A DNA stretch of 63,495 bases, counting the filler, from Chrysochromulina tobinii (Eukaryota): NCBI GenBank assembly GCA_001275005.1. It is 9 parts of 9 records of this genome, joined end to end, with 100 filler letters (N's around TTAATTAATTAA, not from the genome) between each part and the next. Parts side by side here need not be neighbours in the genome. Positions count along the whole stretch, not along the records: positions 38,752 to 47,445 come from JWZX01000845.1; 8 more parts are not named here. The stretch is one strand, 5' to 3'. Numbering within the stretch: position 1 is the stretch's first letter; every line of letters starts with the position of its first letter. Shown here piece by piece: positions 22,601-63,100 of the stretch. The notes under the pieces are model-generated. The model was not told the origin of the DNA, ran no database searches, and saw only the letters and a program-made list of their open reading frames with translations. A program made the translations under genes and the position numbers.

Positions 22601-24210
22601 CCCATGTTGAGCGCGTTGAGGAGCACTTGGCTCGGACTCTCGTTGTTGCCAAGAAGCACGTCGAGGTCGCCGTCCCCGTCCAAGTCCGCCGCCGCGATTG
22701 ACATCGTGCTCGCGCTACCGCTGGGCAGCTCAATGCTCGTCGGGAAGGTGCCGTCGCCCGCGTTGAGCAGCACTCGGCTGGAAAAGCCGTACCAGTTGCC
22801 AAGCAGCACGTCGAGGTCGCCGTCGCCATCCACGTCGGCCGCCGCGATCGCGTACGTGCTTGCGCTGCCGCCGAGCAGGTCGATGCTCGTCGGGAAGGTG
22901 CCGTCGCCCGCGTTGAGCAGCACTCGGCTGGAAAAGCCATAGTTGCCAAGCAGAACGTCGAGGTCGCCGTCGCCGTCCACGTCGGCCGCCGCGATCGAGT
23001 GCGTGTTCGCGAAGCCGCCGAGCAGCTCGATGCTCGTCGGGAAGGTGCCGTCGCCCGCGTTGAACAGCACTCGGCTGGGACTGCCACTGTTGCCAACCAG
23101 CAAGTCGATGTCGCCGTCGCCGTCCACGTCCGCTGCTGCGATTGAGTACGTGTATGCGATGCCGCCGGGCAGGTCGATGCTCGTCGGCAAGGTGCCGTCG
23201 CCCGCGTTGAACAGCACTCGGCTGGCACTGCCTTCATTCCCGAGTAGCACGTCAAGGTCGCCGTCGCCATCCACGTCGGCCGCCGCGATCGAGTGCGTGT
23301 ACGTGCTGTCGCCGGGCAGTTCGATGCTCTTCGGGAAGGTGCCGTCGCCCGCGTTGAGCAGCACTCGGCTGGGACCACCATTGTTGCCGAGCAAGACATC
23401 CAGGTCGCCGTCGTCGTCCATGTCGGCCGCTGCGATCGACTTGGTGCCCGCGCTGCCGCCGGGCAGTTCGATGCTCGTCGGGAAGGTGCCGTCGCCCGCG
23501 TTGAGCAACACTCGGCTGGAACTGCCATAGTTGCCTAGCAGTACGTCGAGGTCGCCGTCGCCGTCGACATCGGCCGCTGCGATCGCGCTCGTGGACGCGC
23601 TGCCGCTGGGCAGCAGCGCTGCGCCGTCATCCCTGAATCTTAGTACAAGCCCGCCACTATCGAGCAGCTCGTTCCCCGTCCTCGCCAAAGGCTTTGGAAG
23701 GAGCAGGCACCCCGGCTCGGAGGACAACGAGCAAGCCGGTGGTAAGAGCGCAGCTCGAATGCCTGCTGCAGGCTTGGCACGGGCCGGCTTCGGCATCGCA
23801 AGGCAGCCCACCCGCCCTGGTGCCGAGCAGTTGGGTGGTGCGAACGCTGTTGGGTGGCCACCCGCCTGGAGCTCCTGCGCATAGTCCCGTGGGGGAGGGT
23901 ACCGTCTGTGGCCCTGGTGCTCGACGTGCCAGCCAGGCTGCGCTGGTCTGGGAGGCTGATCTGGCGGCAAGGGCGGCGAGAAGGGTGAGGGCGATGGCGG
24001 CGACGAAGGCGGCGACGCCTGCAGTTGCGGTTGCTGCGGTGGTGCAAGATGCTCTCGAGGCGGCGACGACGGCATGCCCGAGTGCAGACCGTCGAACAGC
24101 ACTCGGCGTGCATGCGTCGGGGCGACGTGCTGGTCGAGTGAGTTGCCGCTCTCGGCGCACGCACCCAGCAGGGCGGATGCGACCATCAATGCCCTCCACG
24201 TTCTGTTCAT
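19669..24210 (-). CDS. Receptor-like kinase: signal peptide, 14 FG-GAP/VCBS repeats, Cys-rich repeats, TM, TKL kinase
   Basis: 1513-aa intronless ORF; 14 x AAADVDGDGDLDVLLGN; CxxC Cys-rich repeats; TM ALLVAFLVAMAVAFVACCLW; GEGGFA, LAVK, HHDIKTDN, DFG, GTLRYLAPE. Confidence 0.95.
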   Translation of the reverse strand: MNRTWRALMVASALLGACAESGNSLDQHVAPTHARRVLFDGLHSGMPSSPPREHLAPPQQPQLQASPPSSPPSPSPFSPPLPPDQPPRPAQPGWHVEHQGHRRYPPPRDYAQELQAGGHPTAFAPPNCSAPGRVGCLAMPKPARAKPAAGIRAALLPPACSLSSEPGCLLLPKPLARTGNELLDSGGLVLRFRDDGAALLPSGSASTSAIAAADVDGDGDLDVLLGNYGSSSRVLLNAGDGTFPTSIELPGGSAGTKSIAAADMDDDGDLDVLLGNNGGPSRVLLNAGDGTFPKSIELPGDSTYTHSIAAADVDGDGDLDVLLGNEGSASRVLFNAGDGTLPTSIDLPGGIAYTYSIAAADVDGDGDIDLLVGNSGSPSRVLFNAGDGTFPTSIELLGGFANTHSIAAADVDGDGDLDVLLGNYGFSSRVLLNAGDGTFPTSIDLLGGSASTYAIAAADVDGDGDLDVLLGNWYGFSSRVLLNAGDGTFPTSIELPSGSASTMSIAAADLDGDGDLDVLLGNNESPSQVLLNALNMGDGTFPTSIELPGGSAGTKSIAAADVDGDGDLDVLIGNYYGTPSRVLLNAGDGTFPTSIELSALNARTNCIAAADVDGDGDLDILLGNWGVTSRALFNAGDGTFPTSIELPGGSTYTSAIAAADVDGDGDLDILLGNYDSPDRVLLNAGDGTFPTSIELPGGRAYTLSIAVADVDGDGDLDLLLGNFNSPSRALLNAGNGTFPTSIELPGGSRYTNSIAAADVDGDGDLDVLLGNEGSASRVLLNAGDGTFPTSIELPSGSAGTKSIEHTYSIVAADMDGDGDLDVLLGNSGSPNRVLLNAGDGTFPMSIELPGGSARTNSIAAADVDGDGDLDVLLGNEDTPSRLLPFIRCSQPGTARSLFGNGCVRCPAPFSRRDDHFDICYECEEHTELDYRGECSSCKPGSVRFVGAAECTACPRGKRQGKAGTLCVDCSSGSYAPYDGLFGPACLPCERGSFCPPGAAAPVPCHEGSNSSATDLARDEQCPHAPPHAPPLSPPTPPAAPSAAARDMMAQSYEQSHEVLEALLVAFLVAMAVAFVACCLWRRWRTRISTQMLKDNADSVSMHMVPIWAPKQRETLSSSGGSPVTVRSDEPTQLEVVDFSTLAVGRPIGEGGFATVWSARWQGNDLAVKVLNMKLENVDMSPAQQELVMLQEVAILRRLRHPCICALFGHMLVDQRPALVLEYMAGGSLAAHLFANRYAAAAPVAPQGLLGCKLMEPPPPRTRLADMLSDDKKICFAVQLASGLCFLHSHGILHHDIKTDNALLDANHSVCKLADFGLACLSLNYARDRNKAVGGTLRYLAPERVAEVSRRHAHESPDRDESRGSSSLSLGRTLVSFEDRADVYAFGLLLWELIHERRAFEELTGAAAASGALKGLRPQLSKPSKSDGIPAVTCECWAQRPEDRPSMSTVLERLETCMQALSAPSSTSMQMWLQCSDPSSPSALSCSNESRRAAISGCFSAKLPVRRGDAIIVH
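21570..23610 (-). repeat. Coding tandem array of 14 units of about 147 bp (FG-GAP repeats)
   Basis: Near-identical DNA units (...GCTCGTCGGGAAGGTGCCGTCGCCCGCGTTGAGCAGCACTCGG... on plus). Confidence 0.95.
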
Positions 24211-33256: not shown

Positions 33257-35513
33257 TCACTCATCAAGAGACCCATCGCCTGCCGGCCTTGCGACGAGTT
33301 GGGCGAACCGCTCCGCCACCTCGAGAAGTGAGTCGTCGATAGGCAGCGCTCGCGCCAACGGGAGCAGCTGTGAAAGGGTCGGTCGCGCTGTATCGGGCGT
33401 ACTGCCCGCCGCGGGCGGCTGCATGGCTCCCATGGTCTGGTGGCAAAGCTGCGTGACCGCCTCCCGGAGCCTCGAGGCGATGGGCGTGTCTCCTCCGGGT
33501 TTGTGTGACAGCTCTGGTGGAGCCGTCCAGCTGAGTCGCATCAGCAGTTCCGCGAGCTGCTGCTCGTCGCGCTGGGCCGAGCCTGCGCCTCCACCTACCG
33601 CCCCTGACACGTACCTCCGGGCTGACGGCGCCGCTCCCTTCCGAGGTGACGGCGCGCCGGCGCCGGTGCCGGCCCCGGGAGGAGATGGAGCACTCTGGCG
33701 CAGTACCGCGTGCACGAGCGCGATCTCACTCGTCGAGAGTGTACGGAGCGAGGGCTGTTCACAGAAGGTCCAGCGCTTGTGTGAGCTCGCAATCAAAGTA
33801 CAATCAGGAGGTGCAATCAGAGGGGGAGATGTCCACCTGCTCAGAGTAAGTCTCAATAGCACTCAATCGCATTCCGTCGCACTCCGTCGCACTCAGTCGC
33901 ACTCACCTGCTCAGAGTAAGTCCAGAGCATCGGGTCGCTCAGCCACTGCGAGTACAGAAGCGACGGGTTCTCGAGCGCGAGGAGCTTGCGCCAGCGCTGC
34001 AGCCGACTGCCACCCCCCAGGCCGCCGCCTGCGCCTATGCCGCCAGCGCCTTCCTGAGTTGGTTCCCCTAGAGGCATCTCCCCTTCGAGCTCCGCATCTC
34101 CGCACCGAGCTCGCTTCTCACCATCGAGCTCCGCAGGCTCGATGTGGACAATCGCCCCACCGCCGCTGCGAAGCATGCGCTCAGCAAGCTGCCCGCGCAC
34201 CGTGCCAAAGGCGCTCGCCTTCTTCGAGAGGCCCTTGCCTTTTAAGGAACGACCGAGCTTCTCTTTGAGCCCTCCCATCAGCCCGCGCCCAGCAGACCAG
34301 CCGATGCTCTTATCGACCGCCTCGACGACCACCATCGTGATCGCGTGGTGCAACTCCACGCGCTCGGTGGCGAATAGGGTGTCGAGGAGGCGAACGAAGA
34401 TGTGAATCCGTGCTTCGTCAAGGCGAGGCACATCCTTGCGAAAGTGCACGGGAACGAGGTAGCTGCTTTGTGTGCCGAAACCGTCGTGCTGGGCGAGCCC
34501 TCGGAGGGCGTCGGCGAGGAGGAGCACCTGATGAGGATGGCAATCAGAGAGGCCCTCAGATGAGGGAGGCAATCACACATGAAATGAGGGAGGCGATCGC
34601 GTGCCATCACCTCAAAGCCGTCGGTAGGGGCGAGGGCGAGGGCGTCGAGCAGAGGCTTGAGCGCTCCTGCCTCGGTGACAAGGCGCCGGCTGATGGCGGA
34701 GGCACTCGACTGAGTGAGCATGCCCAGTAGCCGGAGGGCGAGCACGCCACGGTACGTGAAGACCACGCGTCCCTCCACGCGCTCAGTCCAGCCGTTGAAG
34801 AGTCCCACAGCAATCTCGGCCCGGGCTGCCAGAGCTCGTGCGCACGCTTCCGAAGACTCGAGACCGCCCGCGGCCGCGAGGTTGACGAGGAGCTCGAGCG
34901 CGAGCGACGGGCAGCGCGACGAGGCATACGCCGAATACAAGGGCTGCGCGAGCACCGCACACGTCACCTCGAGGCCATTCTCGTGGATGACGGCCTTCAT
35001 CAGCGCGTTCCGAGAGGCGAGGCAGTTCTCATCGGTGAGCGCGACGAGTAGCTCGAGGGCCTCCTCCGCCGTGTCGATACTGGCGGCGCCGCGCGCCAGA
35101 GCACCTTCGACGACTTTGAGCGCAAGCGCCACGCCGCCCGCCTCACGAATGGCCAGCCTGTTCTTGCCATTCTCGTCGCGAGCCACCGTCGCCAGCGCGC
35201 AGAGCGCGCTTTCGCCGAGGTCCACCTGATTCTCATCGCTTGCATGCTGGACTGCGCTGGCCGCAAGAATGAGCGGCGGGATCGCACCTGCCTCGCGTGC
35301 CGCCTCCTTGGCTGTCAGCAGCGCCTGTTTGGACGCAAAAGCCAGAAAGTCTTGCAGGGCCTTCGCAGCGTCCGTGCGCGTCGCGACTGCGTTTGGCGGT
35401 TTGAGCTTGGCAACGAGCTCATTGCACACGGTCAGCGCTCGGTGATGCGCGTCACGGTCGGGAACACTCAAGGGAGGGACCAAGTGTCGAGCCATCTGTT
35501 GTGCTCCTGACAT
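33257..35513 (-). CDS. Armadillo-repeat protein, three predicted exons
   Basis: REAGAIPPLI, AIREAGGVALAL and TEAGALKPLL ARM motifs; phase-0 introns 34528-34610 and 33755-33906 join the three track ORFs in frame. Confidence 0.7.
33755..33906 (-). other. Repeat-filled intron with internal copy of its own 5' junction
   Basis: GT..AG; GACTTACTCTGAGCAGGTG is repeated 70 bp inside; the 3' end is a degenerate copy of the exon end (WTYSEQ versus WTFCEQ). Confidence 0.7.
34528..34610 (-). other. Repeat-type intron ending CCTCATCAG
   Basis: GT..AG, GATTGCCTCCCTCAT units, restores frame. Confidence 0.75.
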
Positions 35514-38751: not shown

Positions 38752-39110
38752 TGCGGAGGAGCGAGTGCGCTCGTGGGTCGAGACACGCATCCTGCGTGGG
38801 GTGCTCGCCGCCTCCGACCTGCCTTCTCAGGTGAGTGCCATGATTGCCTTGATTGCCTTCACAGGTGAGTGCCTTGATTGCCTTGATTGCCTTCACAGGC
38901 GAGTGCCTTGATTGCCTTGATTGCCTCTGAGGGCCTCCCTGACTGCGTCTCCGATGGCGTCCGTCATCAGGTGAGCGCCATGGTGACCGAGGTGTCCGCA
39001 CAGAAGCTCGCCCACGAGAGACTCGCAGCTCGACTCGAGCTCGCTGAGCGCCGAGGTTCGTCAGCACGTCAGCAGCTGTGCGCGCTCCGCGAGACGCTTC
39101 GGGCCGCTGA
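38752..39110 (+). repeat. Displaced duplicate of 40288-40578 (exon-intron-exon), ending in an A-run
   Basis: Near-identical (2 substitutions seen) except for 68 extra intronic bases; intron 38831-38970. Confidence 0.92.
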
Positions 39111-39123
39111 AAAAAAAAAAGCG

Positions 39124-39293
39124 GTACGCTGTGATTGCCTCTGATTGGCTCTGATTGGCTCTGATTGCCTCTGATTGCCTCTGATTGCCTCTGATTGCCT
39201 CATTGCCTCTCGCAGCGGTGCGCGAGAGCCTGCTGCTCGCTCTGATGGCCTCGGAGTGCCTCTCTCATTGCGACTGATGGCCTCCTTCATCAG
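39124..39293 (+). other. Repeat-filled intron (CTGATTGCCT)n with 24-bp copy of downstream exon start
   Basis: GTGCGCGAGAGCCTGCTGCTCGCT inside versus GTACGCGAGAGCCTGCTGCTCGCT after CATCAG; 5' boundary uncertain. Confidence 0.65.
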
Positions 39294-42200
39294 GTACGCG
39301 AGAGCCTGCTGCTCGCTGTGGAAGAGGTGCGATTGGCCATCCGGCGGCGCTCGCACAGCGCCCAGCACAGCGCCTCCTCGGCCGCCGCGACTGACGAAGC
39401 GGCGTCCATCGACGGCGCCCATCACGACGCCTCCGCCGCCGGCGACGGTGCGACATCGGAAGCTTCGTGGAACTCTCTCATGGCCACGCCGGCCTCGGGC
39501 CAAGGTTTCGTCAAAACGGCCCCGGGCTCCGAGCGCGGAGGCGCCGTGCTGAGCGGTTCGAGAGCGCCCTCGACCGTTGGCTCCGTCGCCCCCTCGGCTC
39601 CACACGGCGCTCAACGGCCCGCTCAGCACGGCGCTCCGCGGCTCGTCAGCGTGGACGAGGCGGACGGTGCGCTCGGGCTGCTGCGCACGCAGCTCGCTGT
39701 GATAGCCTCGGATTGCCTCTCATTGCCTCTCATTGCGACTGATGGCCTCCTTCATCAGGTGCACTCGGGCTGCTGCGCACGCTGCTCGTGCAGCACAACG
39801 AGCAGTACGGGCGTACCCTGCGAGAGTACGAGATCCTGCTCGCCCAGGCCGAGGCCGATCGTCGTAGGCTCGAGGCCGCCGAGCCTGCGCTCGAGCGGCA
39901 CGCAGTCGGGCGGGCGGTGGCCGAGGCGCAGCTGCGGCTGGTGCAGCGACAGCTCGTCGAGGCGCATGCCGCCCAGGACGGCGCTCTCGCGGTCCAGCTG
40001 CGTGCGGCGGATGAGCGGCTGAGTGTGCTCGGCTCACAGCTGCGTCTGTCGCGTGAGGCGCAGTCGGCGCTGCGTCATCGGCTGGCGGCGACGGCGGCGG
40101 AGGCGGCGCAGCTGCGTCAAAGCCTACAGAGCAGCCTCGAGGCAACCACTGAGAGCAACGAGGGTGGCGCCGAGGGCGGCGGCGGTGGCGGCGGTGGCGG
40201 TGGCGGCGGCGGCGGCGGCGGCGGTGGCGGTGGCGGTGGCGGTGGCGGTGGCGGTGGCGGCGGCGCCGAGGTGGAGTTGCCGTGGGATGCGGAGGAGCGA
40301 GTGCGCTCGTGGGTCGAGACACGCATCCTGCGTGGGGTGCTCGCCGCCTCCGACCTGCCTTCTCAGGTGAGTGCCTTGATTGCCTTGATTGCCTCTGAGG
40401 GCCTCCCTGACTGCGTATCCGATGGCGTCCGTCATCAGGTGAGCGCCATGGTGACCGAGGTGTCCGCACAGAAGCTCGCCCACGAGAGGCTCGCAGCTCG
40501 ACTCGAGCTCGCTGAGCGCCGAGGTTCGTCAGCACGTCAGCAGCTGTGCGCGCTCCGCGAGACGCTTCGGGCCGCTGAGCGCGAGGTGCTTCAGCGACGC
40601 GCGGCGGCGGCGGCTGGGTCAACGGCCGAGGCAGCCGGCACGGAGGCAGAGGAGACGTTACGTGCCGAGCTCGATGCGGCGCGAGCCGCGGCGCATGAGG
40701 CGCGTCGCAAGCAACATGAGGCGGAGGCGATCGCGGCCCAGGCGCGTGCCACTGATTGCCACTGATTGCCACTGAGTGCCACTGAGTGCCACTGATTGCC
40801 ACTGATTGCCACTGATTGCCACTGAGTGCCACTGAGTGCCACTGATTGCCACTGATTGCCACTGAGTGCCACCGAGTGCGATTGAGTGCGATTGAGTGCC
40901 ACTGAGTGCCACTGATTGCGCTCGCGGCGCAGGCGGTGCAAGCGAGCACGGAGCGCGACGAGTTGCGACGCGGCATGGCGGCATGGCAGCAGCAGCTGCT
41001 CAGCTCGAGCGAGCAGCAGCTGCATCGGCAGGAGGAGAAGTTGCGGTCGGCGCACCACGCGGCGCTCTCGGCCCTCCAAGAGAGGCTGCTGCAGGTGCGC
41101 TGACTACGGACTGATTGCGGACTGATTGCGGACTGATTGCGGACTGATTGCGTCCCGATGGCGGACTGATGGCGGACTGATGGCGGACTGATTGCGTCCC
41201 GATGGCGGACCGATGGCGGCCTGATTGCGTCCCGATTGCGTTTGGTGCGTGCAGGAGCGTGCGACCCACGGACTGATTGCACTGATTGCACTGATTGCAC
41301 CGATTGCACTGATTGCGTGCAGGAGCGTGCGACCCACGGGCGAGCAATGCGCCTCGCGCGCCAGCAAGCCTCTGCCGACCTGCAGATGGCGCGCGACGCG
41401 TGGGCGCATGAGAGGCGGGTCGGCGGGCTCGGGCAAGGGGGCGCCGTCTTGGGCGGCGCGGGCGCGTCGTCAGGCTCGCAGACGTCCATCCAGCAGAGCA
41501 TGCAGCAGCTCGCGGCGGAGAATGGCAGGCTGCACGCCGCCGCCGCCGCCTCGCAGCACCGTTACGAGAGCGCTCTCACGGCGTTGCATGCGCGTGACGT
41601 GGCACTCAAGGCGCTCGAGGCGACGCTCGTCGCTCTGCAGGCGAGCACGCCGCCGTTTCCCCACTCGGCGGCGACGCACCCGCCCCCCCCGACCCAGCCC
41701 GGGCCGGCGGCGGTCATGGCACGCCAGCTCGTCAACGCCAAGTTGGCCGAGGCCGACCTGCGCCGTAAGCTGCGCGTCGCCTCGCGGTCCGAGGTCGCGC
41801 TGCGTGACGAGATCGCATCTCGCGACGCTCGGATACGCGAGCTCCGATCTGGCGGCGAGCTCCGATCTGGCGGCGGCCAGGCCGGCGGCGCGGGCGGCGG
41901 CGCGGGCGGCGGCGCGGGGGGTAGCCTCGGTGCGGCAGGCTCGTCTGACTTCGCTCCGCCGCCCGCTCCGTACCTCACCCTCACCGACGCCTATGCGCCC
42001 ACGGAAGCTCATTGGGAGAGTCATTTGAACCCGCGGGGAGGGCTGCGCGCCCAGCTCGCGCGTATGAAGGAGGAGCTCGAGGCGGCGCGTCGGGAACTCG
42101 CCCTCGAGCGTGCGAGCGGCGGCGGTGCGGGCGCCGATGTCGACTGGCAGGGTGTGCAGCTCTCTGATGACCTCTGATGACCTCTGATGACCTCTGATGA

Positions 42201-45200
42201 CCTTCGATGACCACTGATGACCTCTGATGACCTCTGATGACCTCTGATGACCTCGCTCATCAGGAGTAATCACGCGCCTGGCGGCCGTTGAACGCGAGAA
42301 GCGGCATCTCGCGTCCGAGCTACGAGAGAGCCGGCGCCGTGTTGAGCACCACGAGGGCGTCGGCTCGACTGCGCTGGTGCCGGGCGGCGCGGAGGAGCGC
42401 ACGCTGCAGCTGCTCCGTCAGACGAGCGCGGCGGACGAGGCGGCGTCGACGGAGCGGAGGGCGCACCTGCGCGCGGCGGTGCGCTCTTTTGATCTCCCTT
42501 GAGCTCCCTTGAGCTCCCTTGAGCTCCCTTGATGACCCTTGATGACCCTTGATGACCCTTGATGACCCTTGATGACCCTTGATCTCGGGCGCACCTGCGC
42601 GCGGTGGTGAGCGCGGCGGTGCGAGCGAGCTCCGATCTCGCGGGGTGCCTGATGGACGTCATCATGACCTCTGATGACGCCCTTGATTGCCTCCCTCATC
42701 AGGTGCGCGAGCTCCGATCTCGCGGGGTGCTCGGCGACGACGGCGAGGAGAATATGCACGTGCTCGTCGAGGCAGTCGAGCTGCTCGCGGCGCAGCTCTC
42801 AGCCATGCCACCGCCCATGCCGCCGCCCATGCCGCCGCCGTCGCCCTGGACGGGCGTGGGGGACGGACCGCCCAACACGGCGCCCATGCCGCCGCCGACG
42901 CCGCCCAGGGAGCGGCACCCCTCGTACGCCCAACACGGCGCCGAGACGCCCACGAAGCAGCCCCGTCCAGTCTCCGCGCCGTCTCGGGCGTCACCCCGCG
43001 ACGCCCAGGGAGCGGCGCTGGTCGAGAGGCTCTCGCGCCAGCTGCTGGCCGAGCAGCAGGCGAGCGCCCAGCTGATTGCCTCTGATTGCCTCTGAGTGCC
43101 TTTGATTGCCTCTGATTGCCTCTGATTGCGAGTGCCTCTGAGTGCCTCTGATTGCGATTGCCTCTGATGGCCTCTGATTGCCTCCCTCATCAGGAGAGCG
43201 CCCAGCTGCGCGTGCGGCTGCAGCAGATGATCGCTGCGGCACGGGTGGCGCCGCTGCCTCATATGGAGCACACCGACCCAATCGGCCTGCCCAATGCATA
43301 CGTCCCAATGCCGATGAGCGCACCCTCGGCCATCGAGGCGCCGCCGCCGCCGGGCTCGGGCGCCGTCGCGGCCGCCGTCGCGGGCGCCGTCGCGGGCGCC
43401 GTCTCGTGGGCGCCCGAGACGGCGGGGGCAGATTGGGGCGAGATGCCAACCTCGGCGGAGATTGAGGCGCGGGAGGCGGCGGCGAGGCGCGCGGCGGCGG
43501 ATGCTCGGCTACAAACGCAGCTCCTCGAGGAGCAACTGGCAGCGCGACGGCTACAAGGCGAGCTGGCGAGCGCACAGCAATGCCACGCGATCGAGCAGGC
43601 CGAGCTGTCGGAGCGGGTGCGATCTCCCTTGATCTCCCTTGATGACACTTGATTACCCTTGATTACCCTTGATGACCCTTGATTGCCCATTGATTACCCT
43701 TGATTACCCTAGGAGCTGTCGGAGCGGGTGCGATCTCCCTTGATCTCCCTTGATGACACTTGATGACCCTTGATGACCCTTGATGACCCTTGATTGCCCA
43801 TTGATTGCCCTTGATTACCCTAGGAGCTGTCGGAGCGGGTGCACGACCTCCCTTGATCTCCCTTGATGACCCTTGATGACCCTTGATTACCCTAGGAGCT
43901 GTCGGAGCGGGTGCGCGTCCTCACCCTCGCGCCGCACGCCTCCCTGGCCTGCATGCAAGTGCTCACCACGGCGCGCCCTCCCTCCCCACAGGTGCGCGTC
44001 CTCACCCTCGCGCAGCACGCCTCGCGCGCGCAGCACAAGGAGCAAGCCGCCAAGATGGACGAGCTTGCCGCCAAGCTGGCGGACGCAGAGGAGCGAGCCA
44101 AGAAGAGCCTCGCTGACTACCAGGCCATCGTCACCGACCTCGCTCAACGTCGCGCGGCCGAGCGCGCCAAAACTTCCCCACACCGGCTGCCAGCGGAGCC
44201 CAACACGGCGCCCCCCGGCCGGGCGGCGATCTCGAGCGCTGTCTCGGGCACGCCCGGCCGCGCCGCTCGCGCTGGCGGCCTCGCCGGAGCCGCCGCCGGC
44301 GCGGCAGCAGCAGCCAGCGCCGGCGGTGGCGCGGAGCTCAAGATTGAGGCGGCACTCACGGGGGCGCCTCTCGCCGTCAAGCTGCAGGCGCGATCTCCCT
44401 TGATCTCCATTGATCTCCATTGATCACAACTGATCTCCCTTGATGACCCTTGATCTCGCTTCATCACCCTTGCTTGATCTCCCTTGATGGCCCTTGATGA
44501 CCCTTGATGACCTTTGATGATCCAAGGAGCTCATCGCCTCCCTAAGCTGCAGGTGCTGCGCGCTGAGCTCCGGGCGGAGAGACGGCGTGGGACTGCCACG
44601 GAGGCGGCGCTGCGCTCGACCCTCGCCGATCTCGAGGCGGAGATGCGAGATCTCGAGGCGGAGATGGCGCTCAGGGAGGAGAGGGGCACGATGCTCGTCG
44701 GAGTCGTCGGTGAACGGCTAGCCGCGATCCGGAGCCTCTGAGTGCCACTGATTGCCACTGATTGCCTCTGAGTGCCACTGAGTGCCACTAATTGCCACTG
44801 AGTGCCACTGATTGCCTCTGAGTGCCACTAATTGCGACTCATGACCACTCATTGCCTCTCATTCTCGCTAATTGCCGTGGATTGCAGGTGAACGGCTCGC
44901 CGCGATCCGGAGCCACCAGGAGGCCGACGTGGAGGCGCTGTCTCGGGCGCACGTGGAGGCGCTGTCTCGGGCGCACGCCGAGGCGCTGTCTCGGGCGCAC
45001 GCCGACCTCGCGGCGGCGGAGTCGGAGCTCGCGGAGGCCGAGATGAGCATGGCGCAGCAGCAGGCGCACACGGACGCGCAGGCGCTCGAGATGCAAGCAC
45101 TCCGCGACGCGCACGCGGCCTTGGAGCGCCGTCTCGAGCACGCGGCCTCGGAGGGCGAGGCCGAGGCCGCGCCCGCCGTGGTGGTGCAGCCCGCGCGCGG

Positions 45201-47445
45201 AGAGGCCCACCTCGGGCAGCCGCCGCCGCCGCCCACGGCGAGCGCAGCAGCGGCGGCAGTGGACTCGTCCGCTGCGGAAGCAGCCGCGAGCGCCGTCTCG
45301 GGCGCCGTGGCGACTCTCGGTACCACGGCGCTCAGCACGGCGCTGGACGAGGGGGCGGGTGCGCCCCCCACGGCGCTCAGCACGGCGCTTCGCGCGGAGC
45401 TCGAGCAGCTTCGTGTGGCGTTGCATGAGGAGCGGCAGCGCACGGAGCGCGTGCTCGAGGAACTGAGCGCGTCCAAGGCGGCGGCGGCGGCGGCGGCGGC
45501 GGCCGAGGCGGCGGCGGCGGCGGCCGGGGATGATCGCAGCAGCAGCAGCCTTCCGCAGAGGCCAGTGGCGGCGGCGGCGGCAGCTGCTCAAGACGACGCA
45601 TCCTCACCGGCGGCGGAGGGCGCGCCTCTCCTTCAACGGCCGAGCGAGCTCGAGCGCGAGATCAGCGAGCTCCGTGCCGCCGTCGAGGAGGCGCGCGGGC
45701 AGGGCGAGCAGGCGGCGCATGAGGCGCAGATGGCGCGGCAGCAAAAGGAGGAGGCGCTGCAGCAGGCGCAGCAGGCGCAGCTGGCGCTGCAGCAGGCGCA
45801 GCAGCAGGCGCAGCAGGCGCTCCAGCGTGAGAGCGAGCAGGCGGAGCGGCAGGTAACCCAGCTACGACTTCACAAGGAGCACTCACAGCAGCAGCTGCAG
45901 GCGGTGCAGGCGGTGCAGCAGCAGCAGCAGCTGGACCTCGAGCACGCCGAACGGCTCGCGCAGCAGGCGCAGCGCGAGAGCGAGCAGGCGAAGCAGCAGC
46001 TGCAGGCGCTGCGCCGCGAGAGCGACCTGGCGACGCGGCAGGTGGAGCAGCTGCAGACGGAGAAGTGTGAATGTGAACGGCAGGTGGAGCAGCTGCAGAC
46101 GGAGAAGGACCGAATCGAGCGCGACGCGGAGCAAGCCCAACGGGAGGTGGAGGAGGCGCGGCGGGACGCGGCGCACTCGAAGCGGAAGGCCGAGCAGGCG
46201 GAGCGCGCGGCGGAGCAAGCCCGCCGCCATGCCGAGGGCGCCCACGAGGACGCGCGTCGACAGAGTGACGAAACGCAACGGCAGGTGGACGAGGCCAAGG
46301 CTCAAGTTGAGCTGGGGCGTCGTCAGCGGGAGGAGGCGCGGCGGGAGGCGGAGGCGGCCAAGATGGAGGCGGAGGCGGCGCGGCGCGAGGCCGACGTGGC
46401 GGTGCGCGAGGCCGAGGCGGCGGCGCGCGAGGCCGAGGCGGCGCGCGTGCAGGCTGCCGAGTGGAGGAGCGAGTGCGATGGTGTGAAGCGCCAGTGTGAA
46501 GCGCTCACGCGAGCGTCGGACGAGATGCAATCTCGCGCCGAGGAGGGCGCGCGCCATCTCGAGCTCGTGCGCCGCCAGAGCGACGAGCGGCAGCGGGAGC
46601 ACGAGGAGGCACGCCGGCAGCGCGACGAGATGCGCCGGCTGGTGGACGACACGAGATCTCAGCTCGTCGAGGCGCGTCTCGTGAGCGAGCGGAGCCGTGG
46701 CGAGAGTGACGAAACGAGATCGCAGCTCGAGGAGGCGAGATCGCAGCTCGAGGCGGCGAGCTCGCAGCTCGAGGCGGCGAGATCGCGCAGCTCCGAGGCG
46801 CGGCGGGAGGTCGAGGCGGCGCGGATCGAGACCGAGACGGCGCGTTCGCGCCTCGTCGAGGTCGAGCGCCTCCTGCAGTCCAGCCAGGCGCAGGCGGCCG
46901 AGCTCAGCCAGCAGCTCGCCGACGCGCACGAGCTCAGCGCCCGTCACGCCGCGTTGCAAGCCGAGCTCGACGAGCAGCGGCGCGAGGCCGACGGGCTGCG
47001 GCAGCGGGCGGCTGAGGCGCAGCGCCAGCTCGAGGCGCGCCGTCGTGAGCGCGACGAGGCGGAGCAGGCGCTGCGAGAGGCCGAGAGCGACGGCAGCCGC
47101 CGCCTCGAGGCGGCCCAGGCGGAGGCGGAGCACTGGCGCTCGGAGGCGGACCAGCTCAGGCGCTCCCTCGAGGCCACGCGGATGAGCGCGCTGTGGCGGA
47201 AGGCGAGCACGCTCGCGCGCGCGGGCGCCGCGGCCGAGGCGAGCGAGGCGCAGCTCGCGCAGATGCGCCACGAGCTCGCGAGCTTGCGCGCGGCCTCGAC
47301 CCTCCGGGGCGTTTCCTCGCGCACGCTGCTCTCTCGCTCGCGGGACGGGACCAAGGCGGCCGAGGAGGCGGCCGCGGCGGCGACGGCCGATCTTGAGGGC
47401 GCGGCGGCCAGGGCGCGGAGGGCGGGGGAGGCGGCGGCCGCCGCC
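39294..47445 (+). CDS. Giant coiled-coil protein, partial at both ends (tentatively CEP290-like)
   Basis: Removing ten introns (39667-39758, 40367-40438, 40742-40932, 41095-41322, 42152-42263, 42479-42702, 43060-43193, 43617-43991, 44388-44552, 44710-44887) gives one continuous frame; each length mod 3 matches the frame shift between track ORFs. RQLVNAKLAEADLRRKLRVASRSEVALR recalls algal CEP290 (from memory, unverified). Confidence 0.8.
39667..39758 (+). other. Repeat-filled intron with 30-bp junction duplication
   Basis: First 30 nt match the next exon start at 28/30; ends CCTCCTTCATCAG. Confidence 0.8.
40175..40265 (+). repeat. (GGY)n trinucleotide tract encoding poly-Gly
   Basis: About 30 Gly codons in the coiled-coil gene exon. 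Confidence 0.95.
40742..40932 (+). other. GC-AG intron of (CTGAKTGCCA)n
   Basis: TCGCGGC(C/G)CAG|GCG at both ends; 191 bp restores frame. Confidence 0.8.
41095..41322 (+). other. Intron of (CTGATTGCGGA)n and (CTGATTGCA)n with internal copy of the 3' junction
   Basis: TGCGTGCAGGAGCGTGCGACCCACGG occurs inside and across the acceptor. Confidence 0.8.
42152..42263 (+). other. Intron of (CTGATGACCT)n ending CTCATCAG
   Basis: GT..AG, 112 bp restores frame. Confidence 0.8.
42479..42702 (+). other. Intron of (CTTGAGCTCC)/(CTTGATGACC)n containing copies of both flanking exon ends
   Basis: GGGCGCACCTGCGCGCGG and GCGAGCTCCGATCTCGCGGGGTGC are repeated inside. Confidence 0.8.
43060..43193 (+). other. 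GC-AG intron of (CTGATTGCCT)n with 18-bp junction duplication
   Basis: CAG|G(C/A)GAGCGCCCAGCTG at both ends. Confidence 0.8.
43617..43991 (+). other. Intron with three internal copies of the upstream exon end
   Basis: GAGCTGTCGGAGCGGGTGC at about 43602, 43713, 43824 and 43896, separated by (CTTGATKACC)n. Confidence 0.75.
44388..44552 (+). other. GC-AG intron of (TTGATCTCCM)n/(TTGATGACCC)n
   Basis: AAGCTGCAG|G at both ends. Confidence 0.8.
44710..44887 (+). other. Intron of (CTGAKTGCCA)n with 28-bp junction duplication
   Basis: G|GTGAACGGCT(A/C)GCCGCGATCCGGAGCC at both ends. Confidence 0.8.
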
Positions 47446-49784: not shown

Positions 49785-51378
49785 ATGACTAGGCAGAAGC
49801 GTGTGCGAGAGCGCGCGGAAGCCGAGGCGAGGGCCGAGGCCGTCGAGGAGGACGACAGGCGACGCTTCCGAGCCGCGCCACAGGTCCTTGGCAGGCACCG
49901 GCGCTCACATCGCTGCGATTCCTTCTGAGTGCTCAAGCCTTCCTGATGATCATGCTCATGCTGCTCGTTGTGGCCATCATGTCCTCGGAAATGGACGCGG
50001 CCGATCGTGCGCCGGATCGTTCCCGTCAGCGCCTCGACATGCAGAAGCACATCGGCACCATGACCGAGCGTGAGTTTGCTCGGTATTACAGAGTGGACAG
50101 GCAGAACTTCGCAGACATCGTCGAGATGATCACGCCGCCGCTGCCCGAGCTGCGCAAGCGGCGCAAGCGGGGGCGCAAATCATCGGGCGGCTTCGTCGAG
50201 TTCGACCTGCGCCTGTCCATGGCGCTGCGCTACCTGGCGGGCGGCTCGTACCTCGATATCATGTACCTGCACTGAGTCTCTCGCAGCACGTGCTACAAGC
50301 ACATCTTCGGCACGCTCAAAGCGATGGACATGGCACTGCCTGAGTTCACTCTCGACGAGGACATCCACAGCCTGGAGCGCTGCCGCGCGCTCACCGCTAC
50401 GTTCGCTGCGAAGACTGACGAGCATATCCAGGGGGCCATCGCTGCGTGTGACGGCATCATCTTCAAGGTTTGAGAAGCCCACGCAGCTCAACAAGAGCAA
50501 GGTGCCCAACCCCAACAAGTTCCACTGCCGGAAGGGCTACCCCGGCATCTCCGTGCAGGCCGCTTGTGATGGGAACCGTCGCTTCCTGTATATGGGCAGA
50601 TGTATATGGCCATGGACTTTGCTGCAAGCTGCCACGATGCACGTGCTTTCCGTGGTTGCAAGACTCGACGGGGCTCCTTGCTCCACCTGGAGCTCGAGCA
50701 CAGTAAGGTCCTGGGCCGGGAGGACGCAGAGCACCTGCATCCGTTTGGCTTCTTCATTCTTGCCGATGATGCATACCCGTGCCGTGGCGCGAACCGCATC
50801 GTCTGCCCATGGACAACTACGCGCGACCGGTGGTGGTGGCGTGATGCCTTCAAGTACCACCAGAGCCGCGGGCGGATTAACATCGAGTGCGCATTCGGCA
50901 TGCTGGTTAGGAAATTTCTGGTGCTTGCACGTCCCATGGGGATGGACCTCGACAAGTGCCGCAAGACGGTGCGCGTCGCGATGAAGCTCCACAACCTGTG
51001 CATTGACCGTCAGCGCCTCGGTCCAGCTGCCCTAGAGTCGGGGGTGCTCGTGAGCGATTTCACCGGCCGCTACGAGACGCAGTGGGCTGCGGCGAGGGCA
51101 GCTCATATTGCTGCCAAGCGCCAGAATGCAGGCGTAGGCAACGACGGCGACGACGGCGCACGTGAGGTGGCGTCACTAACCCTCGACCTGACCTCCGGCA
51201 CACCAGGTGACTCCCCGGAGCCCAACTGGGAGCCGGATGATGCGTAGATGATGCGCCTGATGATCTCGAGGGTGGCCCTCACCATGGCCTAACAGAGTGG
51301 CTGAAGGGTGCTCGTGTACATCGGCACGACCCGCGCGAGGCCGCTCGGCGCATTGATAGGAATCGGTATGGAGATTGA
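49785..51378 (+). mobile_element. PIF/Harbinger (HARBI1-like, DDE_Tnp_4) transposase pseudogene
   Basis: EFARYYRV, RLSMALRYLAGGSYLDI, GAIAACDG, CRKGYPGISVQAACD, CHDARAF, ILADDAYP, HQSRGRINIECAFGMLVRKF, LHNLCID; TGA at 50273 and frameshifts near 49890, 50470, 50590 and 51245. Confidence 0.9.
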
Positions 51379-52720: not shown

Positions 52721-55700
52721 CAACGGCTTTGAGTAATGAGAGAGCGACGCGCGCGGTCTGCGTCTCGCCGGGCATCGTGAGCATCGGCGTACCCGCCCAC
52801 AGAGCGTCTGTGCCACTCGTGTGCGCGTTGCAGAGCGCCGAGTCGAGCATCAGGTCGCAGTGCTGTGCGCGGCGTAGGTGTGCCACGTGGCGTACTGTGG
52901 GCAGGCCGATGAGCGCGGTGCGCGGCGGCGGCGAGGCATGCGCATGCGCCTCGCGTCTCAGGTGAGCCTCGCCCGCCGCGGGGAAGCGGAGCAGCCAGAG
53001 GCGCGTGCACGGCGCCCGTGCCGCCGCGCGCGAGAGCGCATTGAGCCATGCGAAGTAGAGTGAGGGGTCCAATTTAGGCAGCTGGTTGAGCGAGCAGAGC
53101 AGTACGCAGTGGGGGGGGAGACTGTCCGCCGAGGGCGGCACGCGACTCCGCAGCAGCTCCGCGTGCGACGCCGCGTAGTCGTTGAGGTAGTACGTGTGGG
53201 GAAGCAGCACTAGGCGCTCGGTGAAGCCTAATTTGGCTAGATGCACGGGCACGGCGGCGGTGTCGACATAAGTGTACTGGATCGCGCCCGGGGCTCCGCA
53301 TGGGCCCGGATAGCCCATGTATGCCGCCCGCACAGGCGCGGCTGCGAGCCCAAAGAGACCGAACCGTACCTGCGATCAGATGCAATCAGATGCAATCAGA
53401 TGCAATCAGATGCAATCAGCGGCAATCAGCGAGCCCAAAGAGACCGAACCGTACCTGCCACCAGATGCAATCAGATGCGATCAGATGCAATCAGAGGCCA
53501 TCAGCGGCCATCAGAGGCAATCAGCGCGCCGGCGTGGCTGTATACGCCCAACGCGCAACTCGTACTGTGTCGGCCGCTGCATTCTAAGGTTGCCCGTTGA
53601 GGTTGATGGCGAGGTGGAGGCAATCAGAGGCAATCAGAGGCAATCAGAGGCAGTCAGAGGCCATCACCGTCTCGGACGCGGCATTCCAATGGTGCCCGTT
53701 GAGGTTGATGGCGAGGTGGAGGCAATCAGAGGCAGTCAGAGGCCATCACCGTCTCGGACGCGGCATTCCAATGGTGCCCGTTGAGGTTGATGGCGAGGTG
53801 GAGGCCCTCGCGAGCCATAGCCTCAATGGCGGCACTGGTAGGCAAGGAGCGAATGCGTGTGAACGAGTCGACTGCGCGGCGAGTCTCGTTAAGGATGGCC
53901 GAGCCGTCGTCATCGGACTCGGCGAAGAGGACCACACGCAGGCGTGATCGGTCGTAGCGCTGGAAAAGCGAGCGCGTGAGCCGGAGCAGATTGTGATCTC
54001 GAAAGTACGACGAGACGAACCCGATCACAAGGCGTGTGAGACGGCCGGTGGCTCCGGTCGGTGCTGACGAAACTTCGGTCGGCGCTGACGAAACTTCGGT
54101 CGGCGCTGACGAAACTTCGGTCGGCGCTGTGCCCGCGGCGGCGACGGCGGCGGCGGCCGTCGAGGGTGCCCGTCGGGGGCGAGGCTGGGTGGGTGCTCGA
54201 CTCGGCGCCTCCTGCAAGCCCAGCTTGGCAGCTGTGGCCGCGCGCGACACCGCCAGCAGCTCCGCGGAGGTGAGAGGCGAAGTGAGCGCCCCGACGGGAT
54301 CAACATTGAGGGTGGGGAGCACCTCAGGGTTGCGAATCGCCGAGCGCAGGAAGGCATTGTACGCGTCCCATGCTCGCCAGTAGGCCATGCTCTTCGCAGC
54401 GCGCCCATACAGGTAGCGCGCCTGGTGCAAGCTCGGGATGCCAACGGCAGCGGATGCACGCGTGTGCTGCTCATCGTCCATCTTTGGGTCCGGGTGTCGA
54501 GCACGTAACAGACGATACGCAGTCTCGTACGCATCCATAGCCTCGGCTCGACGCTCCGCGTAGTCCTGCAAAGAGCCCGCCAGAGGGTCAGATCACATCG
54601 GACGTCATGATCGAGGCCATCAGAGGCCATCAGAGGCCATCAGAGGCCATCGGAGACAATCAAAGGCCATCAGAGGCCATCAGAGGGTAGGAGGAGCACT
54701 TACATGCACGATGCCCACGTCAAGAGCGATCTGTGCCTCACTCGGAGACAGCACTCGCGCCGATCGCAGCCAGTGCAATGCCTCCCCCAGCCTTCCTCTC
54801 TCGCGCAGCACGAGCGCTGCGCCCCGGCGAGCCTCGTGACCCAACGGCGCAAGGTGCGAGGCCGTACGGTAGGCCTCAAGGGCGCGGTCCGCGTCCCCGA
54901 GTGCCTTCCGCGCTGCACCCAAATTTTGGTATGACTCGGCGAAGCCAGGCGCGACGCCGACAGCGACTTCAAAGGCGCTGGCCGCCTCAGCAAAGCGCCG
55001 TGCGCTATAGTGCGCCACCCCGATGTTCGAGCGTGACTCGGCATGCCGGGGATTGCGTCGCGCCGCGCGCTGCCAATGCGCCTCCGCTTCCGCGCCACGG
55101 CCGAGCACGTAGAGCACGTTACCGGCCTCAAAGGCGGCACTTGCCGCGAGGTCCATGAGCGAACGCTCGTTGTCCGGGATGGTGGTGGCGAGGCTCACCG
55201 GTAGGTGTCCAGGCCTTGCGCTCGCCGTCGCCGTGCCGCCATCGCCGGAGGAGGCAGCCGCACGGCGTGTCGCTTGCAGGCGCGTGGTGCGTGCCATGAG
55301 GTTGCGCTCCGCCGCTGCAAATGCTCGCAGTGCGCTCTCGCGCCGGTCCAGACGCACCTACGATCGAAGGACATCAGGGAGCTCATCAGAGGCGATCAGA
55401 GGTCATCAGAGGTCATCAGAGGTCATCAGAGGTCATTAGAGGTCATTAGAGGTCATTAGAGGCGATCAGAGGCGATCAGAGGCGATCAGAGGCGATCAGA
55501 GGCGATCAGAGGCGATCAGAGGCGATCAGAGACCTCGCGCTGCCCGAGACGCACCTCACAGAGCCCCAACCAAAGCTGTGACTCTCCATACCGCACGTCG
55601 ATCGTGACCGCCCGTTGCAGGAGCGGATGCGCCTGCTCGAGCCGCTGCGTCGGTCTGCATGCGGGCTGCTGCGCTGCCGGGTCGCTTGGCTGGCTCGGAC

Positions 55701-60143: not shown

Positions 60144-63100
60144 ATGAGACACCACGCTTGCATTGCCTTCCTGCTCATCGCCGTCGCCCTGGGCGCGCGC
60201 GCCGAGAGCATGGCCTCTACTTCCTTTGATGGGGCTGAGGTGCCTTGGGCTCGGGCGTGCCGTCAGCTCTTCCTCGGCGCCACTTTGCCTCCCCCACCGT
60301 CTCTCTGTACGGGCGCTTGCGTGTTCGTCTCGGAGGACGATTGCAACGACAACGACGGCGCTCCCGGCTCCGAGTTCCCGATGTGCGCGTACTGCACCAG
60401 CTGCGTGGACTGCTGCCCGCGCGTGCCGAGAGCGCCGCCCACTCCGCCGGCGGGGACCCCCTTTGGTACTGGCAGCCTCGGACGCCGCCGAGTACCCGAA
60501 TGGCCAGTTGGGCACCGACGGCGCCGACTACGGCCCAGGCCAATCGCTACCATCGCCGGCGGTCAACCCAGCCCCCTTGCGTGCCGGCACTGGCATCTGC
60601 ACGAAGGCGTGTTTCTTCGACGCCGATTGCGACGAAGGCGGCCCCGGCTCCGAGTTCCCGATGCCCATCATGGACATCGCCGCCGTGGGCACCCATGAAA
60701 CACGCGCCGCCGCAGGTACTAACCACGCCGTCATGGGCACCATACGTGCCGCTATGGGCACATTACGCGCCGTCGTGAGCATGACGTGCGCCGGCATGGG
60801 CACCGTACGTGCCGTCATGGGCAACATGCGTGACGTCGTGAGCACATCACGCGCTGTCGTGGGCATAATACACGCCGTCGTGGGCACTGTACGTGCCGTC
60901 ATGGGCAACTTGCGCGCCGTCATGGGCAACTTGCGCGCCGTCATGGGCAACGTGCGTGCCGTCGTGAGCATGTCGTGCGCCGTCATGGGCACATTACGCG
61001 CCGTCAAGAGCACTATACGCGACTTCGCGAGCACTACGCGCGCCGACATGGGCACCATGAGCGCCGTCGCGAGCACCAAGCCGGCCTCGGGCAAGTGCCT
61101 TGCGTCTATTGGCGTTGAGAGCACTGGCGGCATCTACGTGTACGACGTCAGCACGCCCGCCCAGCCCCGCTTCCGGGACGTCCTCAACGTGTGCAACTGG
61201 CGCTTGGGCGACCTCACGTGCGGCGAGACCTGCTTCTACGTCTCAGGTGGCGACGGCGACGACGGTGTCGCCGGCACGGAAAGCTACCTCATCGAGCTCA
61301 CCTGCCATCTCATCCAGGAACGAACCCAGACGATACCTGACGAACCCTACCTCATCGAGCTCACCTGCAATCTCAACGATGGCCCCAAGTCTCTCGTCTG
61401 CATCTGGGCCGCATCTCGTCTGCATCTTGTCTGCATCTCGTCTGCATCTCGTCTGCATCTCGTCTGCATCTGGGCCGCCGACTCGCCTCTCGGCCTCTAT
61501 GATGTGTTCCTGGCGGCCACGCCGCTGGCAGGCGGCCTCACGGCGTACATCATCGAGTGCGGTCCACTGCGCGGCAACGACGGCTCGTGCTCGAACTCGG
61601 CGCCATCCCCGTACCTGTCCACCGCGGTCGGCGGCACTCGTCTCTACCGCAACCGGGATGGCAAGTCCACCATCGAGCCGCGCGCCATCTGCCGCTATGC
61701 TGCATGCATCGAGCCGCGCGCCATCTGCCACTATGCTGCGTGCATTGGCGCCGTCCGTAACTCAACGACGGCCGACGGACTCCGCAAGGTCGCGCCCAAG
61801 GTCGTTGAGATCGCACTCGAGAAGCTCTTTATCAAGGGCACGATTGGGGACGCCGATGTCAAGTACACGTTCCTGTACGACCAGACGAACGCGAGCGAGG
61901 ACACGGCGGGCGACCCCATGGAGAAGGCGGCGGGCTTGGACGGTATGCCTTGGGAGCGGGTGGAGTGCTTTGACCTCGCACTCGTGCTGCTCAGGCTCGC
62001 GTCGTTCGTCTGGGCGGTTTGCGCGTCGTCGCGGAGACGATCGGGTCCGAAGGAGCGCTTTGCGAATCAGACGCACCGTAACCAGCGCTTCGCATTGGCC
62101 TTGCTCGTGCTCCTCGTCCCGCGGTCGAGTGCCATGGCGACAACGGCACCCCCCGATGGGACTGATGCGCATCGGGCAGCACCCTCCGATGGGACTGATG
62201 CGCATCGGGCAGAGTCGGTGCAGACGCCGCCGCTGCGGCATCGGGCAGCGTCGGCGCAGACACCGCCCCTGCGGTCGCCGCCGCTCACTCAACTCTGCGC
62301 CGATGATATGAACAGCGGCGCCTTGGACTCGAGCGGTGCACCCTTGCCGTGCTCCTACTTCTCAGCACAGGCCTCTGTTTGCGCTTCCTACTCCATCGCG
62401 CGGACCAAGTGCCCGGTCGCTTGTAGCACGTGTCCGCCACCACCGCCCGACCCCTCGGAAAAAATGGTCTTGTCAGGCGCCGAAACGAGCGACCATCCAC
62501 CGCGCCCGCTGCCGCCACTGCCGCCACCCCGGCCGCCGCTCGCGCCACCCCCATCGATGCCCCGTCCCAAGCTGCCACGGAACCTTTCGAGCCTTGGCCC
62601 GATGACGCCACCTGCAACCTCGCCGCCACCGCCACCGCCACCGTGGCACTCGCTGAGGCCACCGCCACCGCCGTGTCCGCCGCCCTCGCCTCCGTCGCTT
62701 GTGGCGCCCAACTACAACGTGATCCCGACGGCGGGATGCACCGGCGCCAACGAGCACGGCGTCTATGATCCTGATACTCTTGCGACTTGCGCCGCGCGTT
62801 GCGACGCCGTACCGACGTGCATCTCTTTTGAGTTTCAAACGAGCGATGGCAAGTGCCAGTTGTCGAGCTCGTGCAACCAGGCCTCAGCAGGCTACGTATT
62901 GGGCGGTACCTTCAACCTCTACATTAAGCGGCGCGACGGTTGGCTCTCGCCGCCGACGCCGCCCCCGCCCCCACCCATGCCGCGACCGCCGATTCCACCT
63001 CCTCCACCCGTTCGAATGCCCATCCACCGCCGTGAGCTGCAGCATGCTCAGCCACCGCCCTCGCCGCCACCACCTTCTCCTTCTCCTTCTCCTTTACCTC

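Follow-up and report, generated by a model that had tools for sequence, protein, structure and literature searches.

Repeat-filled introns flanked by copies of exon sequence in Chrysochromulina tobinii: a likely variant route of duplication-assisted intron gain

Gene model and splicing

The window analysed here, a stretch of 63,495 nucleotides (filler included) from the haptophyte Chrysochromulina tobinii, is made of short contigs joined by spacers and has a GC content of 54-71% over 2-kb bins. The focal contig (38752-47445) carries a gene with eleven introns, preceded by a misplaced second copy of one of its own segments:

39121..47445, plus strand: gene for a coiled-coil, low-complexity protein, partial at both ends; 2,128 codons when spliced; homologous proteins are colinear over junctions 3-7
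38752..39110, plus strand: repeats the segment 40288-40578 with 2 substitutions; a poly-A run and a mis-join at 39111 come after it
39124-39293, plus strand: intron 1, GT-AG, nested; an internal 28-nt copy spans the spliced junction; the 3' 32 nt equal those of intron 2
39667-39758, plus strand: intron 2, GT-AG; the first 30 nt copy the downstream exon (28/30) and are the source of the donor
40367-40438, plus strand: intron 3, GT-AG; 13-nt duplication over the junction (12/13)
40742-40932, plus strand: intron 4, GC-AG; the end of the upstream exon is repeated at the 3' end of the intron (16/18 in register)
41095-41322, plus strand: intron 5, GT-AG; two modules and, between them, a 22-nt copy of acceptor and exon start
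42152-42263, plus strand: intron 6, GT-AG; 10-mer array, no duplication
42479-42702, plus strand: intron 7, GT-AG, nested; internal copies of the upstream end and the downstream start; the second haplotype differs inside
43060-43193, plus strand: intron 8, GC-AG; 18-nt duplication (17/18); the 3' 19 nt are common with intron 7
43617-43991, plus strand: intron 9, GT-AG; three array modules, with 15 nt of the upstream exon end repeated after each of them
44388-44552, plus strand: intron 10, GC-AG; acceptor from a 10-nt duplication (10/10)
44710-44887, plus strand: intron 11, GT-AG; a 28-nt duplication (27/28) supplies the donor

As had been claimed in the original prediction, which was made from the sequence alone, excision of these eleven GT/GC-AG stretches from the contig restores one frame of 2,128 codons with zero stops. 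Retaining a single intron introduces stops in ten of the eleven cases, the exception being the 72-nt intron 3, which is open in frame. All eleven end in AG, and introns 4, 8 and 10 have a GC donor. Homologous proteins retrieved by a HMMER search are colinear over junctions 3-7, with one of them (P0254) spanning all five, although the source of these proteins may itself be RNA; a word-based search with the exon at 41323-42150 found nothing, whereas the HMMER search did find homologs. No Pfam family scores above the cut-off for the focal protein, and a resemblance to CEP290 finds no confirmation in Pfam.

RNA evidence comes from contigs of four of six RNA runs aligned to the window; 32 records were listed, and every RNA count given here is among these matches. 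Words of the window occur at 0.81-0.83 in 11 mixed-culture DNA runs and in small shares in the six RNA runs. Among the matches listed, RNA contigs bridge two of the eleven introns, skipping 191 nt at intron 4 (X13 rec 9) and 178 nt at intron 11 (X14 rec 20), and at seven more an RNA contig ends at the junction or fits the spliced form. At introns 3, 5, 6, 7, 8 and 9 the end of a contig falls on a predicted splice site, either donor or acceptor; two contigs begin at 40435, in intron 3, with 19-21 unplaced 5' letters. At intron 2, contig X14 rec 15 extends 30 nt into the exon copy with two mismatches, as the spliced form predicts. The proposed check of the junctions by RNA is thus positive for these introns and silent for introns 1 and 10, for which no spliced contig is among the matches listed; four RNA contigs among them run unspliced across a junction. 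The donor of intron 1 is only predicted, lying a few bases from the poly-A join to the misplaced second copy of 40288-40578. These are spliceosomal introns, removed from RNA at GT/GC-AG boundaries. In the region 42264-42702 one RNA contig is about 85 bases shorter between introns 6 and 7 than the model, and at 42597-42657 the second haplotype is strongly different.

Exon duplications at the junctions

The five duplications quoted in the original prediction are all present (28/30, 27/28, 17/18, 13/14 and 10/10 identical), and the duplicated exon does provide either the donor (5' copies at 39667, 43060 and 44710) or the acceptor (3' copies at 40742 and 44388). In the duplication at intron 8 the exon copy begins with GA and the intron copy with GC. 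The three modules of intron 9 are followed on their 3' side by a 32-nt copy of the downstream exon and then by a non-array module at 43945-43991.

Duplications were evaluated over 17 introns of the window (18 with one kinesin intron of locus L007 added), namely the focal eleven and the following:

55358..55554, minus strand: OGT-like gene, intron a; 23-nt duplication (19/23); missing in relatives
54566..54703, minus strand: OGT-like gene, intron b; GTAAGT donor, array, no duplication; missing in relatives
53370..53749, minus strand: OGT-like gene, intron c; nested, with 56 nt of the upstream exon end and 26 nt of the downstream start copied; missing in relatives
34528..34610, minus strand: predicted intron; CATCAG end, degenerate units, no duplication, no TRF array
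34068..34121, minus strand: predicted intron; a 19-20-bp period consisting of copies of the upstream exon end
33837..33906, minus strand: predicted intron; a 19-nt duplication (19/19) supplies the acceptor

The OGT-like gene lies on a contig other than the focal one and encodes the Pfam families GT41 and TPR. Elsewhere in the window, 49900-51250 contains stops and apparent frameshifts and, judged by eye, may be a remnant of a PIF/Harbinger-type transposase.

Fourteen of the 17 introns (10 of the 11 focal ones) carry exon copies above the 95th percentile of 306 mismatched intron-flank pairs, a threshold with a null rate of 6.9%, and in a permutation test of the duplication means 0 of 100,000 permutations reach the observed value. 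The predicted count therefore stands well above the null, but only nine introns are duplicated in register at both junctions; five have internal copies and three have none. The duplications vary in length from 9 to 56 nt, and the downstream exon begins with G in 18/18. Across twelve copy pairs, 254 of 267 positions are identical, and exons of the two haplotypes are 98.7-100% identical. The copies are less alike than the haplotype exons, and would therefore be older than the haplotypes and much younger than the relatives. Where a copy meets an array (20 joins), the mean overlap is 1.75 shared bases against 0.90 expected, a count that is partly circular and has one join entered twice; this microhomology is only suggestive of template switching.

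It is scarcely credible that the duplications are assembly artefacts at repeat edges. The assembly does consist of short contigs and has one evident mis-join, at 39111, but 13 of 267 positions are different between the two copies, the stretches skipped by RNA contigs have precisely the lengths predicted, and the introns of the OGT-like gene are kept with their copies in four other assemblies; L007-L009 comprise two haplotypes. In DNA run X5, which may be the window's own source, several duplications are each spanned by a single contig without difference, such as the copy in intron 5 (X5 rec 28); intron 10 is likewise spanned (X5 rec 31). This objection, raised by the original prediction against itself, is largely refuted by the agreement of other assemblies, DNA contigs and RNA contigs.

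An inverted repeat flush with both intron ends is found in 0 of 18 introns, which have just 3-7-nt internal inverted copies of the 3' end. Neither terminal inverted repeats nor a fixed short target-site duplication, the two marks of a TIR-type introner, characterises these introns, in agreement with the proposed origin without such an element.

What fills the introns

A 9-11-bp array had been noted in every intron. TRF detects one in 11/11 focal introns, with only 2.5-3 units in introns 2 and 3, and in 15/17 window-wide; 34528-34610 has none and 34068-34121 has the 19-20-bp period. Ten bases is the length of 119 of 139 repeat units, which are built on TGAT/TGAG; Read et al. reportedly found, in 2013, that 10-11-bp tandem repeats are enriched in the introns of Emiliania huxleyi. 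The usual branch-point pattern, YTRAY, occurs in the 3,086 intron bases 153 times in sense and 9 times in antisense orientation, compared with 3 and 12 times in exons and 94 and 92 times in the first 26 kb, and the adenine of the last YTRAY lies 17 nt from the 3' end in 8/18 introns. Judged by their sequence, the arrays are a sense-strand, branch-point-like motif. Arrays of the intron type were absent from the 59,788 bases outside introns, where five weak hits are of other kinds; the array patterns had 0 hits in viral contigs and one irrelevant hit in prokaryote genomes. The window also contains an 11-bp array of a different unit at 61392-61478, in a low-complexity gene region with no clear splice sites and outside the 17, and a 147-bp tandem repeat of 12 copies at 21801-23614, which is probably a coding repeat.

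The 3' ends of the introns recur. They are identical over 32 bases in introns 1 and 2 and over 19 in introns 7 and 8, and 7/18 introns end in CATCAG. The end of intron 8 is found in 104 contigs of DNA run X5, where it continues in other sequence. The non-array last module of intron 9 (43945-43991), which is single copy in the window, occurs in 50 X5 contigs with other upstream sequence and appears to be a second repeated family. No two of the 18 introns match end to end, and the ends alone recur in 49-104 contigs. Because of the shared 3' ends, the recurrence in 104 contigs and the repeated non-array module in intron 9, the fill looks copied from existing introns rather than freshly synthesised; the de novo repeat-synthesising step of the original prediction is thus disfavoured.

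Age of the introns and later remodelling

For the OGT-like gene ten loci were compared, four of which belong to this species or to a strain close to it. In L002 (4.1 kb) and L003 (7.7 kb) a single ORF without introns covers the protein, the distant relative L004/L005 is continuous at all three intron sites, and L010 is continuous at the one site that it covers; a frame break in L010 was considered as an intron and ruled out, the gap not being intron-like. The sister sequence L001 was excluded from the absence count, as its ORF fills the contig and it may be a transcript. Since the intron-less loci fall into two clades, both well supported in a quick tree, a single gain at each site is a simpler account than several losses. 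None of 14 relatives aligned has the kinesin intron of L007, the informative ones being on 17-kb contigs; for kinesin, the best hit named by NCBI is from the haptophyte Diacronema lutheri, at 50%. Comparison at orthologous sites, as had been suggested, accordingly finds all four introns tested (three OGT-like, one kinesin, all in two non-focal genes) to be lineage-specific; two of them have clear duplications, while OGT intron b and the kinesin intron have none beyond 4 bases. For the focal gene no genomic ortholog lacking the introns came to light, and wild DNA runs X18, X20 and X21 yield array and low-complexity matches only, which are silent on presence or absence. The protein P0249 of a close relative (81%) stops just after junction 6, in a peptide such as the start of introns 9 and 10 would encode. 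Site 6, the sole focal intron without a duplication, thus seems to be shared with the relative and differently filled.

The segment 38752..39110 is likely the other haplotype, mis-joined at the poly-A run. In it, intron 3 (38831-38970) is longer by two 34-bp units, each made of exon end, donor and array, and both intron 3 variants are present in X5. The unit of OGT intron c occurs once in L006, which could be an assembly collapse, and twice in other alleles; after about position 1130, L006 exits the OGT-like gene inside an intron array into unrelated sequence, owing to either chimeric assembly or rearrangement. A subset of introns, namely OGT c and the second version of intron 3 (at 38831), has the tandem, allele-variable boundary copies that define mirage minisatellites. 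Between L007-L009 and the window, the arrays of the OGT-like gene differ mostly by whole 10-mers. Since duplications differ between alleles in two cases, some of the internal ones appear to post-date the intron and not to be birth scars, and re-duplication at existing introns could mimic such scars. This is a caution for the field: repeats that flank an intron may be later than the intron itself.

A proposed birth mechanism and its rivals

The observations to be explained are that some sites are spliced, that exon sequence is duplicated, that introns have 3' ends in common, that the motif is biased to one strand and that four introns are absent in relatives. We lean slightly towards the view that many of these introns were born at a staggered break in an exon, where 9-32 bases were duplicated and a stretch of an existing intron was pasted between the copies. 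On this view the free end of the cut exon would pair with an array at another place, in many cases within an adjacent intron, and be extended by copying array, branch site and AG; rejoining upstream would duplicate the exon stretch. The insert would be retained only if the duplicate begins with GT, GC or GA, or ends with AG, in which case splicing would restore the mRNA exactly. Arrays would later change by whole units, and the same slippage would re-duplicate boundaries and give rise to nested introns. An RNA template fits the precise AG ends equally well as DNA plus selection. A wider scheme, which we regard as possible but doubtful, would be a transposase-free haptophyte intron factory, in which branch-point arrays and acceptor are copied from intron to intron into staggered breaks, possibly from excised intron RNA and seeded in some lineages by the telomeric repeat; the GT/GC/GA rule would let the duplicated exon give the donor, and each lineage would have units of its own.

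Precise 3' ends common to more than 100 contigs could also be the work of a mobile introner family, spread by target-primed reverse transcription of an excised-intron or SINE-like RNA or descended from a decayed TIR element, with the duplications as its target-site duplications. Two modules recur, one with an acceptor (CATCAG, 7/18) and one with a donor (introns 9 and 10 and the P0249 read-through), 6-bp inverted ends lie flush with the last module of intron 1, and the combination of a precise 3' end with a variable 5' end and duplication fits target-primed insertion; variable duplication length is expected of non-LTR insertion. Introners have been reported from Chrysochromulina sp. (10.1101/2022.06.06.494994), and non-LTR introners make up about 5% of classified cases (PMC12130899). 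We nevertheless consider such a family unlikely, given that the intron bodies are heterogeneous without any end-to-end match, that the best matches are neighbouring introns and that no such array occurs outside introns in 59,788 bases.

It is quite unlikely, in our estimate, that the introns are older and that their unstable arrays slip over the boundaries (mirages), with an apparent birth scar left behind when the first module is deleted or when repair is partly templated by mRNA. A copy of the downstream exon flush with the upstream exon would then take at least two events per intron, and both lineage-specificity and the simple 15-nt case of L005 (see below) would go unexplained. Speaking for greater age are the boundary copies that differ between alleles, the internal position of 5/14 duplications, the nested modules, and site 6, which apparently carries different arrays in two relatives; mirages themselves have been described (PMC3087553). 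A fill made at the break by a telomerase-like enzyme is very unlikely for the window species, where the arrays consist of varied 9-12-mers that do not resemble CCCTAA, introns have unique 3' tails in common and one module is not a repeat; the idea draws on a duplication-flanked L005 intron of CCCTAA-like 12-mers, on a neighbouring gene with (CCCTAA)n introns, and on mammalian telomeric insertions with target duplication at 3/66 loci (PMC7215372).

Relation to known systems

Many gained introns have no known source (PMC3443670), and where the sequence of a new intron comes from is an old question; in the present case the exon itself is the origin of the donor, while other introns would be that of the acceptor and the branch-like motif. 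Birth at a staggered break is likely a variant route of duplication-assisted intron gain, and its combined architecture may be new. A search of openly available article text found no description of that architecture, and term searches of the available text of PMC4580454, PMC12480563, PMC2784329 and PMC8379373 returned nothing on it.

In classes 4/5 and 6/8/10 of the introner-like elements known from Symbiodinium and Polarella glacialis, as here, the insert carries one splice site and the duplicated target the other, donors are GT, GC or GA, and the downstream exon begins with G (10.1101/2020.10.14.339549). Those elements are described as having a fixed 3-8-nt duplication per class and near-identical copies, in contrast to the 9-56 nt, heterogeneous arrays and common nested events found here. 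Family 5 of the Chrysochromulina sp. introners, also from a haptophyte, has no TIR, brings its own donor and takes its acceptor from the duplication, which is the geometry of intron 10 (10.1101/2022.06.06.494994); it differs in its 4-bp duplication and is set beside these introns by description alone, the available account making no mention of a tandem array. Intron gain by break repair (Daphnia) and by tandem duplication likewise leaves direct flanking repeats and draws splice sites from duplicated exon (PMC3443670), whereas here the filler apparently comes from other introns with branch-like motifs and a GT, GC or GA donor suffices instead of AGGT. The mirage minisatellites of amphioxus are allele-variable boundary copies that are harmless to splicing, comparable to introns 1, 5, 7, 9 and OGT c (PMC3087553); as described, however, they copy an existing boundary, give no donor-flush copy of the downstream exon and have no link to a genome-wide 10-mer family. 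Many introns of Emiliania huxleyi have a GC donor, and GA donors are also known there (PMC4028052); the available text of that study links introns neither to exon duplication nor to intron gain.

Repeat-filled introns in a distant relative

Present and absent alleles in a related lineage make the mechanism testable. L004/L005 has three introns at sites of its own, with units of 12, 11 and 6 bases. The first (L005 1442-1521, 80 nt) is flanked by a 15-nt duplication and built of CCCTAA-like 12-mers. Of the 34 cluster members, the 15 listed divide into 11 that end in a stop at this site and 4 that continue through it; among 11 full-length members, 94-100% identical, the intron is present in 7 and absent in 4. 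Since the read-through members also read into the next intron, they represent unspliced sequence that lacks the first. The most basal member of the cluster carries an intron at the site, and the alleles without it may have lost it by way of the direct repeat. At the stops the peptides vary, with EA, QA, QV, EAQPYS or EANLSSP preceding the stop, which suggests either that an initially perfect duplicate acquired a stronger donor afterwards or that the intron was gained in parallel.

CCCTAA is the telomere motif reported for Phaeocystis (PMC11347835), and among the loci studied fill of this type occurs in L005 alone. A kinase-like gene at L005 4863-5395 has plain CCCTAA-type introns in either orientation, together with a duplicate of an exon end and its donor, and at L004 555-676 a neighbouring gene contains a repeat-filled gap with a 19-bp unit in 6.4 copies.
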